From positions 5,727 to 69,726 of the forward strand of contig CAZWYI010000002.1 of NCBI GenBank assembly GCA_964638155.1: 64,000 nt of DNA, given 5' to 3'. The notes below the pieces were generated by a model. That model had not been told where the DNA came from. It saw nothing but the letters and a program-made list of their open reading frames with translations, and did not search any database. Source of the stretch: an uncultured Thermoplasmatales archaeon. Lineage in GTDB: Archaea > Thermoplasmatota > E2 > DHVEG-1. Made by a program: the position numbers and the translations under genes. How positions within the stretch are numbered: position 1 is the stretch's first letter; each line of letters opens with the position of its first letter. This document shows, in pieces, positions 30,865 to 36,381 of the stretch.

Positions 30865-31881
30865 TTAAAATATCTTTAAAAAACCCATAAATTCACTAAA
30901 AATAGTTAAAATTGCAAATGCTAATGCAAAAAATATGTATTCAATATACATAACAGACCAGGCGTGTACGTTTTCAAGGGTTTTACTTTCTTTACTTCTT
31001 ATCATTAAATAAAAAAGGAACATACTAAAAAAAGAAAAAAATGCTAAGATCCATAAATGTGATTCTAATAATCCTGCGTAAGTAAAAATTGGTATAAAAA
31101 CAAATGGAAAAAGCATAAAAGGAAAACATAAAAGCGCGGTTTTTTTAATTCCCATTGTATTAATCAAGGTTTTTGTACCAGTTGCTTTATCTGCCTCGCT
31201 ATCAGTTATGTCCTTAGTGGACATTCCACCTATTAAAAATGTAGTTGCGACTGCTCCTATTATTAGTGGTGTTGCTTGAAACGGATTTCCTCCGTCTGGT
31301 ATAAAAACACTCCATGCTGCTAATATTCCAAGCATTCCACGGGGTATTGCAATCCATATTTGATTTATAAACAAATATTTTTTCATACGTGGTGGAAGAG
31401 AGTACATTACGGTAAAAACCATAATTAAAAATACAAAAAAACCAAACCAAGGGTTTATAACAACAGCTCTAAGCAAAGCAAAAAGATACAATATATATGC
31501 TAAGGATTGAGCAGCCTGAGGTTTTATTATGCCTCTAGGAATAGGCCTATACGGTTTTGATATTTTATCAGCATCTACATCTGTTGCTTGGTTTAAAGAA
31601 TTGGATGCTGCGTTAACAATTGCCATAGTTAGGCCTGCTTGGCCTACTGTTATCATCCAATCAGAAGGTATATCATTATATGGTGGATTCAGATGATTAA
31701 AAACAAGGCTTGCAACCATAATAGACATAGAAACAATAAGTGGTGCAGCAAGAGTAAAGGGTCTGAAAAGATCAAGTGCGCCTCTAGCTTGTTTTGAAAG
31801 AAACTTTGTCCTAGTGTATGGAGCCTTCATTGTCCATTTACCAGGAACAGTGCCATCTTCTTTTGGATTAGGTTTGTTCAT
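30865..31881 (-). CDS. UbiA-family prenyltransferase (paralog 1).
   Basis: Prenyl-diphosphate binding motif NQATDVDADKISKPYRPIPRG; 8-9 TM helices. Confidence 0.7.
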   Translation of the reverse strand: MNKPNPKEDGTVPGKWTMKAPYTRTKFLSKQARGALDLFRPFTLAAPLIVSMSIMVASLVFNHLNPPYNDIPSDWMITVGQAGLTMAIVNAASNSLNQATDVDADKISKPYRPIPRGIIKPQAAQSLAYILYLFALLRAVVINPWFGFFVFLIMVFTVMYSLPPRMKKYLFINQIWIAIPRGMLGILAAWSVFIPDGGNPFQATPLIIGAVATTFLIGGMSTKDITDSEADKATGTKTLINTMGIKKTALLCFPFMLFPFVFIPIFTYAGLLESHLWILAFFSFFSMFLFYLMIRSKESKTLENVHAWSVMYIEYIFFALAFAILTIFSEFMGFLKIF

Positions 31882-31941
31882 TGTCTGCTTATATCATGGA
31901 CTACTATTTAATTTTTATTTTTGTTATAAAAAATAATTTTA

Positions 31942-33318
31942 CTATATAATTTCATTACAAAGAATCTTTGCAGAGTTAATAGCGCAATTAATACCTATTC
32001 CTGGTGCTTTTGTGCAATCTCCAACTAAAAAAAGATTTTTAATTGGTGTTTTAATATCTGCTTTTTTGTTATCTATAGTTTTTGCTATACCATCAAGATG
32101 CCATATCGCTGGATAAAAACACCATTTAAGATCATTTTTATAATTAGGAATAATTCTTTCCAAATTTTTATCTAGAATTTTTCTAAGTTTTTTTAATATT
32201 TTTTTATTCTTTGCCTCTTTTGGATTACAGATAAGATATGATTGAACAATATGATCGTTTTTAGATAATCCTGCTTTAGGCGAGGCGGTCATAAAATCAA
32301 TCATTCCAACAGCATCATTACCTTCAATACCAACATTTCTTTCAATAAAAACAAAGGTTTTTCCAATTAGATCAGACTTTATATCTTTTAAAGAATAATA
32401 AGCACATAAACTTCCAGTACCATATGAAGATTTTAAACTATTAACATACTCTTTTGGGAGATGTTTTTTATCTGCAATATCAAATAGATTTTGAACTAAA
32501 ACATTAGCAATTACTTTATCACAATAATATTTTTTGTTGTTTGCAATAACACCTATTGCTTCACCATTTTCAATGATGATGCGATCGACTGGTTTGTTTA
32601 GAAATATTTTTCCTTCGTGATTTTCTATATATTTAACCAGTTTTTTTATGATATATGATAACCCGCCTTTTGGATATCTTACTCCTTTCAGACGCATATC
32701 TTTTTGCGTCCTAAATACCTCGCCGGTTGAGATAATATCTAAATTGTTTACAGTTGTAAACAATCTCGAATTTACTTCTAAAACAATCTTTGTCTTACCC
32801 TTAGCATATTTTTTAATAGTCTCCGTTATTGAGGCTTTATCCATTTCTTTCATAGTTTTTTCACTAGCTAAGAGAACTCTTAAGATATTTGGAATCATTT
32901 TTATTTTTTCAAAGTTTGTTACAAAATATCCAAAGTGATCATTTTTTTGTTCATATAATCTTGATTCTAAAATTTCTATATCTTTAATCGGAATTGATAG
33001 AATCTCACTAATCTTATCTAATATCCCTCCTCCTATTACATGGTATCCTAAATCAAGGTTAATTCCATCGAGTTTTTTTTCTTTGAATATTTTCTCTAAA
33101 GGCGGTTCTGAAAAAGGAACATGCATGTTAAAATCTTTTAATATATCAAGATATTTTTTGTAATTTAAAGAGGACATATCCATTGAAAGAGCTCTTCCAC
33201 CGGATAGATTTTTTTTTTCAAATATTTTTACTTTATATCCCTTTCCCGAGAGGATAGCTCCTGAAATTAATCCGCCAATCCCTGCTCCTATAATGCATAT
33301 GTTTTTTTTGGTTGCCAT
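31942..33318 (-). CDS. FAD-dependent oxidoreductase of the phytoene desaturase (CrtI/CrtD) family.
   Basis: N-terminal dinucleotide fold ICIIGAGIGGLISGAILSGKGYKVKIFEKKNLSGGRA, ~458 aa, C-terminal VGDCTKAPGIGINCA. Confidence 0.6.
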   Translation of the reverse strand: MATKKNICIIGAGIGGLISGAILSGKGYKVKIFEKKNLSGGRALSMDMSSLNYKKYLDILKDFNMHVPFSEPPLEKIFKEKKLDGINLDLGYHVIGGGILDKISEILSIPIKDIEILESRLYEQKNDHFGYFVTNFEKIKMIPNILRVLLASEKTMKEMDKASITETIKKYAKGKTKIVLEVNSRLFTTVNNLDIISTGEVFRTQKDMRLKGVRYPKGGLSYIIKKLVKYIENHEGKIFLNKPVDRIIIENGEAIGVIANNKKYYCDKVIANVLVQNLFDIADKKHLPKEYVNSLKSSYGTGSLCAYYSLKDIKSDLIGKTFVFIERNVGIEGNDAVGMIDFMTASPKAGLSKNDHIVQSYLICNPKEAKNKKILKKLRKILDKNLERIIPNYKNDLKWCFYPAIWHLDGIAKTIDNKKADIKTPIKNLFLVGDCTKAPGIGINCAINSAKILCNEII

Positions 33319-33324
33319 AAATTT

Positions 33325-35315: not shown

Positions 35316-35365
35316 GAGGGTATAATTGCAACTTTCCTATATATCCTTAACGTTATCTTATTTTG

Positions 35366-36043
35366 CTAAGAAATACCTAGATTAGTGAAAATTTTGGAAA
35401 TTAGACCGTGAACAACAAATATTATCATGCCGGTTATTGCAACAGAAGAGATGGAAATTAGAACTTTTCTATTTTCAGAAAATCTTGATCTTTCTATTAA
35501 AACTGTTGCAAATGTCATAAAAAACAATAAGACAAACCATCCAATAAAATTTAAGAGAGGTACTTCGAAAAACTTAACTCCTTCTAGAGAAGATTTCCAA
35601 ACCCACCAATTATTATGGTGGGCAATAGGGTCCTCTAACATATCTAAAAAAACACCAAATAGTCCTGCTAAAATTGATATTAATAATATTTGAAGATGAT
35701 TTTTTTTATCATAAATCTGACTAACAGCATGCTTTCCCATATTCATAAATAAAAATAAATTTGCACTCCAGGCCAAAACAATTGATAAAGGCACACCTCC
35801 ACCAACGACTGAAACATACAAAAAATATCCGGGGTAATAATATCGTCCGCTTGCCACACCAGCGGATTCTATAAATAATGCGGCAAGTATCATAGGAAGA
35901 AAGTACATACAGGTTTTTTTCCAGCCATATTTTTTATATGAAAATAGTATAAGCAAAACCCATACAACACAAATAGTAAAAACAAATAAATGAAGTAACT
36001 GTGTATTTTCTCCAAAATTAGGATTGAAATTGACATAAATCAT
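35366..36043 (-). CDS. Polytopic membrane protein co-operonic with the UbiA/CrtD genes; possibly a carotenoid-biosynthesis (CruF-like hydratase) membrane protein.
   Basis: 6-7 predicted TM helices. The call rests on operon context only, with no diagnostic motif, so confidence is low. Confidence 0.25.
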   Translation of the reverse strand: MIYVNFNPNFGENTQLLHLFVFTICVVWVLLILFSYKKYGWKKTCMYFLPMILAALFIESAGVASGRYYYPGYFLYVSVVGGGVPLSIVLAWSANLFLFMNMGKHAVSQIYDKKNHLQILLISILAGLFGVFLDMLEDPIAHHNNWWVWKSSLEGVKFFEVPLLNFIGWFVLLFFMTFATVLIERSRFSENRKVLISISSVAITGMIIFVVHGLISKIFTNLGIS

Positions 36044-36381
36044 TTATTTTTCTCCTTTGATTTTTCTCTGGTTTTTCTAATTATTAGCATTGCAAAGATT
36101 GGTATTAATGAGAAAATTCCCCCCATCATTGTCCCAGAAATAAAACCAGATGAAAAACCAATTATAAACATCATAATGACAATAAAAATGTATAAAATTA
36201 GATAGAAGTTGACTTTTTTCCCTAATATTTTAATGAAGTCTTTAGTTAAGTTCTCTCCTTTATATGAATAATCGTTTCTACCTGTGTAGTATAATATTAT
36301 TGTAGCAAGAACTCCAATGATTCCTATTGGCAAAAAAAGATAAATATTTTCTATTATAAAATTTACAAAATTGTTTTCCAT
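36040..36381 (-). CDS. Small membrane protein, hypothetical.
   Basis: Three hydrophobic helices, a lysine-rich C-terminus, and 4-nt overlap with the downstream gene. Confidence 0.3.
   Translation of the reverse strand: MENNFVNFIIENIYLFLPIGIIGVLATIILYYTGRNDYSYKGENLTKDFIKILGKKVNFYLILYIFIVIMMFIIGFSSGFISGTMMGGIFSLIPIFAMLIIRKTREKSKEKNK

Follow-up and report, generated by a model that had tools for sequence, protein, structure and literature searches.

A variable cassette of isoprenoid-type genes in sediment Thermoplasmatota, a candidate for membrane-lipid tailoring

A 64,000-nucleotide stretch of contig CAZWYI010000002.1, assigned to an uncultured Thermoplasmatales archaeon and referred to here as the window, carries at positions 30865–36381 six minus-strand open reading frames (ORFs) for three UbiA prenyltransferase paralogs (UbiA_a, UbiA_b and UbiA_c), a CrtI-like flavoprotein, a CruF-like protein of the PF04240 family, and a small membrane protein (sm). 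This combination raises the question of which isoprenoid product such an archaeon makes with it. The original prediction, made from this DNA alone, likened the locus to the bacterioruberin genes of haloarchaea. Comparison with related genomes indicates that the locus is a variable cassette in which UbiA_a is nearly constant and the variable parts all belong to isoprenoid-acting families. As the best explanation we tentatively propose, on sequence comparisons, that this cassette occupies a fixed chromosomal slot and quite possibly serves to prenylate, hydrate and either desaturate or reduce a membrane isoprenoid lipid. The general kind of system, isoprenoid tailoring by carotenoid-type families, is known; the multiplicity of UbiA proteins, the alternation of PF04240 and AttH-type proteins, and the cassette behaviour are new. 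No description of this cluster was found in the literature on archaeal carotenoids, on PF04240/CruF proteins together with UbiA and geranylgeranyl reductase (GGR), or on the lipids of Thermoprofundales (also known as MBG-D, for Marine Benthic Group D).

The list of ORFs bears out six co-directional, tightly packed genes of the lengths originally reported, transcribed in the order sm, CruF-like, UbiA_c, UbiA_b, CrtI-like, UbiA_a. The first two overlap by 4 bp, the later gaps are about 50, 53, 6, and 60 bp, and this spacing is operon-like. The UbiA_c ORF opens at a TTG codon at 35315 (310 aa), and the annotated gene is the 309-aa form starting from the ATG at 35312. In the intergenic region upstream of sm, the presumed promoter region of the cassette, sequence reading found a TATA-like element, TTTATTTAAA, at 36411–36420, 30–39 nt upstream of the ATG at 36381. 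The GC content of the cassette (0.28–0.31) is the same as that of its flanks, the window having about 30% GC.

A BLAST comparison with the ORFs of fetched loci revealed the same genes in the same order in 18 species-level genome loci and in further metagenome contigs, a recurrence that argues against a chance arrangement. The majority order is sm – CruF-like – UbiA_c – [UbiA_b] – [GGR] – CrtI-like – UbiA_a – a secreted protein of about 1,059 aa – UbiA_a′, the last being a 45% identical paralog of UbiA_a on the opposite strand. Orthologs are 62–77% identical for UbiA_c, 62–74% for UbiA_b, 55–66% for CrtI-like, 56–68% for UbiA_a, and 36–46% for sm. Presence and absence were judged in the 14 loci that extend far enough. 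UbiA_b is missing in four of them (L002, L007, L013, and L015), while UbiA_a is present in every related locus of sufficient extent except L019. The three prenyltransferases highlighted in the original prediction are thus correct for the window, but represent only one state of a variable locus. Public annotations of these genes are generic, such as "carotenoid biosynthesis protein" and "UbiA family prenyltransferase", or carry automated names of DGGGP synthase (DGGGPS) or 4-hydroxybenzoate prenyltransferase. In L002, a fragment of a Y1 transposase (PF01797; 11756–12055, minus strand) lies between UbiA_c and GGR, at the usual position of UbiA_b, and hints at how the content of the cassette changes.

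The GGR paralog is located between UbiA_b (or UbiA_c) and CrtI-like in 11 of the 14 loci and is missing in L004, L005, and L028. Scores of 227 and 214 bits were obtained for relatives' GGR with TIGR02032 (cut-off 158.8), followed by BchP/ChlP as the second-best model, while the lipid-reductase equivalogs gave 102–121 bits against cut-offs of 580–780. By these scores, the protein is a bona fide member of the GGR family and not the housekeeping lipid-reductase equivalog. Since saturation of the chain suits lipids and not conjugated pigments, the presence of GGR inside the cluster favours a lipid product.

The nearest relatives of the window were found via UbiA_a (78–80% identity); their GAPDH and aIF2-gamma are 88–91% and 86–87% identical to those of the window, respectively. 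The flanks, gap–HD–[TauE] on one side and x139–PIN–aIF2-gamma on the other, are common to all of them, while the content between differs (Table 1). Besides the three UbiA types of the window, L028, L033, and L036 carry the further paralogs Ud and Ue, which share about 33% identity with UbiA_b. The position upstream of UbiA_c is occupied by PF04240 and sm in the window, and by a candidate AttH/CrtC-like protein in sister genomes. These AttH-like proteins carry the motifs EWWYFD and GYHDHNW; they match, below threshold, the CrtC lipocalin domain PF07143 (all three) and a Diels-Alderase N-terminal domain, and for one of them the best PDB match is 2ich, "putative AttH". They may constitute a divergent AttH/CrtC subfamily specific to this lineage. 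Because two unrelated types of isoprenoid hydratase alternate upstream of UbiA_c, hydration of a prenyl C=C bond would be a core step of the pathway.

The same data bear on the possibility that the six genes share no pathway at all, UbiA_a and/or UbiA_c being the housekeeping DGGGP synthase and the others unrelated neighbours assembled by chance or by genome compaction. It would agree with this that UbiA_a is near-universal across locus variants (all but L019) and in L033 is conserved like its housekeeping neighbours (78%, versus 80% for HD and 88% for GAPDH), that accessory genes come and go among loci, and that no UbiA passes an equivalog threshold. However, all genes that vary in the slot come from families acting on isoprenoids (UbiA paralogs, GGR, CrtI-like, PF04240, AttH/CrtC-like), which contradicts such an explanation; the six genes of the window run in one direction and either overlap or lie no more than 60 bp apart, their order is kept over 18 species whose flanking genes differ, and functional analogues would not replace random neighbours. 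We therefore regard the absence of a common pathway as very unlikely.

Table 1. Features of the cassette in the window and gene content of the corresponding slot in related loci. Ud and Ue, further UbiA paralogs.
Feature	Coordinates	Strand	Description
sm	36040–36381	-	113 aa, about 3 transmembrane segments; first gene of the cassette; no family match
CruF-like	35366–36043	-	225 aa, PF04240 polytopic membrane protein; predicted isoprenoid C=C hydratase
UbiA_c	34383–35312	-	309 aa from ATG; most DGGGP-synthase-like of the three UbiAs
UbiA_b	33325–34329	-	334 aa; divergent, lineage-restricted prenyltransferase paralog, variable among relatives
CrtI-like	31942–33318	-	458 aa, FAD-dependent oxidoreductase of the amine-oxidase/CrtI superfamily; lineage-restricted orthologous group
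UbiA_a	30865–31881	-	338 aa; near-constant member of the locus; (bacterio)chlorophyll-synthase/DGGGPS/HPT-like
Divergent intergenic region	36382–36555	.	AT-rich; between cassette (-) and TauE-family gene (+); presumed promoter region
AttH-like proteins	L033 6924–7943; L035 3165–4184; L036 6525–7532		335–339 aa; no precomputed Pfam family
Slot, window			sm – CruF-like – UbiA_c – UbiA_b – CrtI-like – UbiA_a
Slot, L035			AttH-like – UbiA_c (74%) – UbiA_b-like (reverse) – GGR – CrtI-like – UbiA_a
Slot, L036/L037			Ud – UbiA_b-like (reverse) – AttH-like – CrtI-like – UbiA_a
Slot, L033/L034			Ud – AttH-like – Ue (reverse) – UbiA_a
L028 (closed genome CP070724.1)			Ud – UbiA_b – CrtI-like – UbiA_a – big – x – UbiA_a′; no CruF-like or sm

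To which known enzymes are the three prenyltransferases related? As originally proposed, all three are UbiA proteins, scoring 110.9 (UbiA_a), 63.6 (UbiA_b), and 100.4 (UbiA_c) bits with PF01040 against a cut-off of 34.2. Each has 7–9 hydrophobic segments and both Asp-rich motifs, defined as N[DQ]xxDxxxD and DxxxD: NQATDVDAD and KDITDSEAD in UbiA_a, which also has a conserved N-terminal extension, NDYIDIELD and DADHD in UbiA_b, and NDVPDLESD and DYIGD in UbiA_c. In characterised UbiA-family enzymes, these motifs bind Mg2+ and the prenyl diphosphate. The best NCBIfam model for each protein is the unnamed "prenyltransferase" NF009523, with 127 (UbiA_c), 85.5 (UbiA_a), and 55 (UbiA_b) bits against a cut-off of 269. 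For UbiA_c, the next-best models are those of DGGGPS, and UbiA_a also matches homogentisate phytyltransferase (74.4 bits) and ChlG (62.2 bits), both below the cut-offs.

Structural data point in the same direction. In a PDB sequence search, the best match was DGGGPS of M. jannaschii (6m31) for both UbiA_c (1.2e-15) and UbiA_a (6.5e-9), followed by ChlG for the latter; UbiA_b had no match in this search, nor in a tblastn search of plasmids. AlphaFold2 (AF2) models of UbiA_b (pLDDT 82.7) and UbiA_a (pLDDT 77) superpose on the UbiA-fold structures 6m31 and 4tq3; in Foldseek searches of the PDB, the best matches (TM scores 0.64–0.77) were 6m31, the M. jannaschii DGGGPS, for UbiA_b (TMq 0.65, TMt 0.76), followed by AfUbiA, and 6m31/7bpu for UbiA_a. 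The plasmid search matched UbiA_c to haloarchaeal DGGGPS and ChlG, and UbiA_a to genes annotated as chlorophyll synthase ChlG and then to haloarchaeal DGGGPS; annotations of the places matched by these two proteins were DGGGPS, ChlG, EboC, and generic UbiA-family prenyltransferase, with two places unannotated. No carotenoid enzyme was among the top NCBIfam or PDB neighbours of the three proteins, in a comparison that lacked a LyeJ or CrtEb reference. Altogether, judged by sequence and predicted fold, all three UbiAs are nearest to DGGGP synthase and (bacterio)chlorophyll synthase. The original prediction had set its assignment against prenyltransferases of the DGGGP synthase or menaquinone type and a flavoprotein of the geranylgeranyl reductase type; the UbiAs do lie nearest to DGGGPS, in the weak sense of nearest neighbours, whereas the flavoprotein is not a geranylgeranyl reductase, though in most relatives a bona fide one is encoded directly beside it.

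Identities as MenA, MqnP, UbiA, heme O synthase, or DPPR synthase were rejected in view of NCBIfam scores of about 18–38 bits and the absence of pathway neighbours. A Halorussus plasmid UbiA, considered as a LyeJ reference, was dropped, since it sits in a different cluster together with an MMPL transporter and a polyprenyl synthase. In all, 941 homologs of UbiA_a, up to 80% identical, and 471 homologs of UbiA_b were found, and among the 120 of the latter that were listed nearly all are exactly 334 aa long. Two homologs bear bacterial labels in NCBI, P0467 (68% identical to UbiA_b) as "Candidatus Woesebacteria bacterium" and P0392 (68% identical to UbiA_a) as "Bacteroidetes bacterium"; both are probably mis-binned archaeal contigs.

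The affinities of UbiA_a might suggest another product, a prenylated head-group compound that is not a lipid, such as a membrane electron carrier of an aromatic or quinone-like kind, a compound akin to tocochromanols, or an ester of a tetrapyrrole. In that case UbiA_a would have the role of a homogentisate phytyltransferase or a (bacterio)chlorophyll synthase, the phytyl chain would be supplied or saturated by the ChlP-like GGR of relatives, and changes to the side chain would fall to the hydratase and CrtI-like protein. In line with this are the NQxxDxxxD and KDIxDxxxD motifs of UbiA_a, its scores with homogentisate phytyltransferase and ChlG (74 and 62 bits), its best plasmid matches annotated as ChlG, and the second place of BchP/ChlP among the models of relatives' GGR. 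There is also a partial precedent from anoxic sediment, the BchG-like UbiA of an uncultivated archaeon of the Miscellaneous Crenarchaeotic Group (MCG), found on a fosmid, which has (bacterio)chlorophyll synthases as its closest annotated relatives and was functional in vitro, as far as the account in a later paper goes (Meng et al. 2009, via PMC3930316); UbiA_a is likened to it by description only and, unlike it, sits in a multi-gene isoprenoid cassette. However, no Mqn, Men, Ubi or Bch head-group genes occur in the window or in any fetched flank, the MenA, MqnP, and UbiA models score only about 20–38 bits, all model matches are far below the curated cut-offs, and the alternation of two types of isoprenoid C=C hydratase is left unexplained. 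A head-group compound as the product is therefore very unlikely.

The 225-aa protein encoded after sm proved to be a true member of PF04240, the family with which it had originally been compared, with 68.9 bits against a cut-off of 25 over 188 of the 209 model positions. The CruF equivalog TIGR03460 gave only 34.8 bits against 154.7. It has about six transmembrane segments, and its orthologs are 63–79% identical (63–70% in 18 species-level metagenome-assembled genomes, MAGs). Residues E59, D134, D138-P139, W147, W149, P162, N165, and W169 are invariant even in comparison with homologs from bacterial plasmids. On Legionella, Vibrio, and Klebsiella plasmids (L025, L026, and L027), PF04240 genes stand alone, with no carotenoid genes nearby, so the family name does not imply carotenoids, and the family probably has functions beyond them. 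Therefore, whichever product is correct for the cassette, the annotation "carotenoid biosynthesis protein" attached to PF04240 should not be taken as evidence for pigments.

For the sm protein, which has three hydrophobic segments, neither Pfam nor NCBIfam gave a match, even at E ≤ 10. In nearly all fetched relatives covering this position, an ortholog of sm lies immediately upstream of the PF04240 gene; sm accompanies that gene and is missing from every locus that lacks it. The idea that sm is a cyclase subunit of the CrtYe/CrtYf type was rejected, since no lycopene-cyclase domain was detected in four orthologs, even at E ≤ 10.

The flavoprotein belongs, as predicted, to the CrtI superfamily in the wide sense: it matches PF01593 (42.8 bits, cut-off 19.8) and NAD_binding_8, its canonical FAD-binding N-terminus is intact, and its best models are of the CrtI family. 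All specific assignments fell short, with 72.4 bits against 238.1 for crtI_fam (TIGR02734), 63.9 against 549.7 for CrtD (TIGR02733), 56.9 against 640 for the haloarchaeal CrtI/D (NF058655), 32.6 against 500 for NF042421, and 46.0 against 580 for NF045637; the CrtISO and CrtO equivalogs were also far below their cut-offs. The best solved relatives are 3ka7, an "Oxidoreductase" (63.6 bits) which we take to be a Methanosarcina mazei protein, and 3nrn (PF1083), while structures of CrtI and CrtD align with it only at the N-terminal FAD motif. A search of 1.84 billion representatives returned 23 at E < 1e-30, mostly fragments, and the next full-length relatives are about 28% identical, those with names being Asgard archaea (Freya-, Loki-, and Hel-archaea); no close match to fragments of 3ka7 or 3nrn was found among the 150 best representatives. 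On this evidence, CrtI-like forms an isolated, lineage-restricted orthologous group. In the Lokiarchaeial locus L022 (8001–12401), a relative of CrtI-like adjoins genes for thiolase, DUF35, and thiolase-C, which resemble the opening part of the mevalonate pathway, and in L030 (746–3161) a distant archaeal relative follows a polyprenyl synthase gene by 5 bp. We count these isoprenoid-supply neighbours in favour of an isoprenoid-lipid product.

The closest known gene arrangement is crtD–lyeJ–cruF of haloarchaea, in Haloarcula japonica c0507-c0506-c0505, where crtD is also named crtI/D (Yang et al. 2015, as summarised in PMC11946383 and PMC9258230). There, too, a UbiA protein, a CrtI-family flavoenzyme, and a PF04240 hydratase are encoded co-directionally, and the prenyltransferase gene adjoins that of PF04240. 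This likeness underlies an alternative in which the cassette makes a bacterioruberin-like or other acyclic hydroxy-carotenoid from a C40 backbone produced elsewhere in the genome. CrtI-like would desaturate the chain, one or more of the UbiAs, acting like LyeJ or CrtEb, would elongate it to C45/C50 or beyond, and CruF-like (a CrtC-like protein in sister genomes) would hydrate it, the product being a membrane rigidifier and not a light screen.

Besides the mirrored gene content, this alternative draws on the standing of the two alternating hydratase types as classic families of carotenoid 1,2-hydratases, and on the haloarchaeal C0507, which shows that a single CrtI-type enzyme can perform both phytoene desaturation and 3,4-desaturation. 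In addition, the cluster in CP070724.1 is flanked by a gene for a protein resembling class-I isoprenoid synthases (weak SQS_PSY match, DDIQD motif), and homologs of lyeJ, crtD, and cruF in Patescibacteria from the dark, cold waters of Lake Baikal have been read as bacterioruberin genes serving membrane fluidity (PMC9948471).

However, membership in the haloarchaeal system is not supported, since its defining features, where tested, are absent: the cassette proteins miss the CruF, CrtD, and CrtI/D equivalog cut-offs 4- to 11-fold, and that of crtI_fam is also missed by a wide margin. The place of a single UbiA is taken by 3–4, which have DGGGPS and ChlG as their closest families; further differences are the additional small membrane protein, a GGR paralog in most relatives, and a hydratase interchangeable with an AttH/CrtC-like candidate. 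The bacterioruberin logic of the original prediction thus stands as a likeness of gene content and fails as an assignment. A GGR within the cluster of most genomes would destroy a conjugated chromophore. The supply of lycopene is likewise not apparent: Pfam scans covered about 50 window proteins, that is, most ORFs of at least 100 aa, leaving aside the ORF at 55444–64000 and several ORFs recognised from their translation, and neither SQS_PSY, polyprenyl_synt, lycopene cyclase, and GGPP synthase in these scanned ORFs nor crtB, crtE, and crtY there or among the called genes of the fetched flanks were found, the rest of the genome not having been searched. The original statement that the window has no phytoene synthase or cyclase holds within the same scope. 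The hosts are heterotrophs of anoxic sediments, Thermoplasmatota and not pigmented halophiles. Finally, the named full-length relatives of CrtI-like come from Asgard archaea, anaerobes that are not known to be pigmented, and its best solved relative, 3ka7, is an uncharacterised oxidoreductase. A carotenoid product is therefore somewhat unlikely, although it deserves consideration; if it were correct, C45/C50-type carotenoids would be extended to dark, anoxic archaea.

The preferred explanation, tailoring of a membrane lipid, has precedents in which carotenoid-type families act on archaeal lipids. Proteins of the CruF and CrtC/AttH types add water to an isoprene C=C bond to give a tertiary alcohol, and in LyeJ the addition of a C5 prenyl unit to a terminal double bond goes together with hydration, the unit being transferred to C-2 of a psi-end and the water added at C-1. 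Hydroxyarchaeol of Methanosarcina acetivorans, a non-carotenogenic anaerobic archaeon, is made by the CrtI/phytoene-desaturase-family protein MA0127, or Has, which, as secondary accounts describe it, acts on the geranylgeranyl chains of the ether-lipid precursor and adds water at the 2′,3′ double bond, the remaining ones being saturated afterwards by GGR (Mori 2015, via PMC10821996, PMC12777485, and bioRxiv 10.1101/2025.10.20.683597). The CrtI-like protein of the window differs in forming its own lineage-restricted group, in a comparison made without the MA0127 sequence. The AttH/CrtC-family hydratase Hgs, which makes hydroxylated glycerol dialkyl glycerol tetraethers (OH-GDGTs), introduces tertiary alcohols on archaeal lipid tails and is genomically coupled to the B12-radical-SAM desaturase Ted (bioRxiv 10.1101/2025.10.20.683597). 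Sister genomes of the window similarly carry an AttH/CrtC-like candidate (a sub-threshold match) in the cassette, whereas the window has a PF04240 hydratase, and in place of a radical-SAM desaturase its partners are UbiAs together with a flavoenzyme. Both lipid precedents, one of the CrtI type and one of the AttH type, were counted for the lipid explanation, and in its host biology the cassette seems closer, by analogy, to the Has and Ted–Hgs modules. Host ecology, the presence of GGR, and the cassette behaviour together tilt the choice between carotenoid and ether lipid towards the lipid.

One could envisage the following pathway. The UbiAs would transfer prenyl groups from prenyl diphosphates to a lipid acceptor, UbiA_c and UbiA_a by O-prenylation of the DGGGPS or chlorophyll-synthase type, and one or more of the paralogs possibly by C-prenylating a terminal double bond in the manner of LyeJ. 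An isoprene C=C bond would be hydrated to a tertiary alcohol by the PF04240 protein with sm, or by the AttH/CrtC-like candidate in sister genomes. CrtI-like could desaturate or isomerise the chain, or hydrate it as its homolog Has does in hydroxyarchaeol synthesis, and the GGR paralog found in most relatives would then saturate the remaining double bonds. The expected product would be a hydroxylated and/or prenyl-extended geranylgeranyl-derived membrane lipid, either an ether lipid or a free polyprenyl regulator, and not bacterioruberin.

Several observations weigh against this proposal. No GGGP synthase, CDP-archaeol synthase, or Tes is encoded beside the cassette in any fetched locus, and tblastn detected no GGR homolog in the window. 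In common with DGGGP synthase (MJ0279, 6m31), the best solved match of all three, the UbiAs have the fold and both Asp-rich motifs; unlike canonical ether-lipid enzymes, they miss the DGGGPS equivalogs NF009521, NF009522, and NF009512 (cut-offs 296, 353, and 278 bits), with 88.3, 90.4, and 39.9 bits for UbiA_c and 68.8, 55.9, and 42.3 bits for UbiA_a, respectively, while UbiA_b matches NF009522 alone, below the cut-off (29.5 bits). Relatives' GGR misses the lipid-reductase equivalogs in the same way, and GGGPS and CarS are not found nearby. The AttH-like assignment is tentative, since matches to PF07143 are sub-threshold (E from 6e-5 to 5e-4, at best 21.3 bits against a cut-off of 22.5) and a profile of the three sequences retrieved nothing from the PDB. 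The chemistry of CruF, CrtC, and LyeJ is best documented on the psi-ends of carotenoids, so that on paper the gene set fits an acyclic carotenoid equally well. Finally, the protein flanking the cluster in CP070724.1, a 348-aa product encoded divergently from it (L028 7646–8692, minus strand; SQS_PSY 19.4 bits, a weak polyprenyl-synthase match, DDIQD), could supply a C30–C40 backbone.

If the products are lipids, this would be the third case, after Has and Hgs, of "carotenoid" families recruited for archaeal lipid tailoring, and the first with PF04240 and extra UbiA prenyltransferases. The locus offers a compact candidate gene set for lineage-specific isoprenoid lipids (3–4 UbiA paralogs, CrtI-like, a GGR paralog, and two hydratase types), which lends itself to direct testing by heterologous expression, as has been done for Has, Tes, Ted, and Hgs. 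A bolder and rather unlikely extension, offered as speculation, is that sediment archaea of the MBG-D/Thermoprofundales type make an undescribed lipid class, in which the extra UbiAs, through LyeJ-like chemistry, would C- or O-prenylate geranylgeranyl-derived tails, whether ether-bound or free, and interchangeable CruF- or AttH-type hydratases would then hydrate these to tertiary alcohols, species-level swapping giving each population a different decoration. If so, orphan biomarkers of anoxic sediments that are hydroxylated or extended isoprenoids could derive from products of the cassette.

The 18 species-level MAGs with relatives of CruF-like are labelled Thermoplasmatota or Thermoplasmatales, one of them being Thermoplasmatales archaeon SM1-50, and sediments of Zodletone, White Oak River, and Alinen lake are indicated by their labels; the sources of the relatives are anoxic sediments, lakes, and springs. 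An assignment of the host to Marine Group II was rejected in view of these relatives. The host thus appears to be a low-GC sediment lineage of Thermoplasmatota that includes SM1-50, its link to MBG-D resting on similarity of the cluster and not on marker phylogeny. To our knowledge, MBG-D/Thermoprofundales have no cultured member and no described membrane lipids. Zhou et al. listed SM1-50, which comes from a sulfate-methane transition zone, as one of the Thermoprofundales (MBG-D) MAGs, and archaea of this type are among the commonest in sediments worldwide (PMC6461988). Archaeal genes of the window include those for aIF2-gamma and S6e, both recognised from translation, a protein with an aIF2-beta/eIF-5 domain, and ribosomal protein L7Ae. 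Histidine-degradation genes are also present, with a histidine/aromatic ammonia lyase beside an ORF read as urocanase from its translation.

Several minor features concern the surroundings of the cassette. Directly downstream of UbiA_a lie a 53-aa ORF (30665–30826, minus strand), whose ribbon-helix-helix look is an impression only, and a gene for a 139-aa protein (30095–30514, minus strand), neither with a Pfam family. The 139-aa protein carries CxxC...CxxCC cysteines and follows UbiA_a in all close relatives with 58–63% identity. Between x139 and the PIN gene, the window has a DUF3800 gene (29159–29812, minus strand; PF12686, 69.6 bits) adjoining a DUF3800-X RNA motif (29080–29149, plus strand; RF02984, 57.6 bits, above the gathering score); this pair is absent there in the syntenic loci L033, L035, L018, and L005, and therefore looks like a recent insertion. 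Genes for a DeoC aldolase, an epimerase, MTHFR, and DUF5981 are located at 7021–11723 (minus strand), about 24 kb from the cassette, and directly precede the cluster in the more distant relatives L002, L003, and L028. Their proximity to the cluster in only some relatives indicates that the genomic context of the cassette differs between sublineages.

Two further loci contain other genes of isoprenoid type. In L028, a 1,131-aa transporter of the MMPL/Patched/sterol-sensing type (2290–5685, minus strand) is encoded 3 kb from the 348-aa protein, and the two are a possible pair of backbone synthase and lipid exporter. The Halorussus caseinilyticus plasmid region L032 (81883–92425), with genes for a squalene-cyclase-repeat protein, an MMPL transporter, a polyprenyl synthase, and UbiA, is another uncharacterised archaeal isoprenoid cluster.

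Elsewhere in the window, an Rfam tRNA match spanning 123 nt (28586–28708, plus strand; 55.4 bits) was not reported by ARAGORN and is presumably an intron-containing archaeal tRNA. The plus-strand frame at 55444–64000 is stop-free for more than 2,852 codons and runs off the window end; its product, acidic and rich in Asn, Asp, Thr, and Ser, with an N-terminal hydrophobic segment, is probably a giant surface protein.

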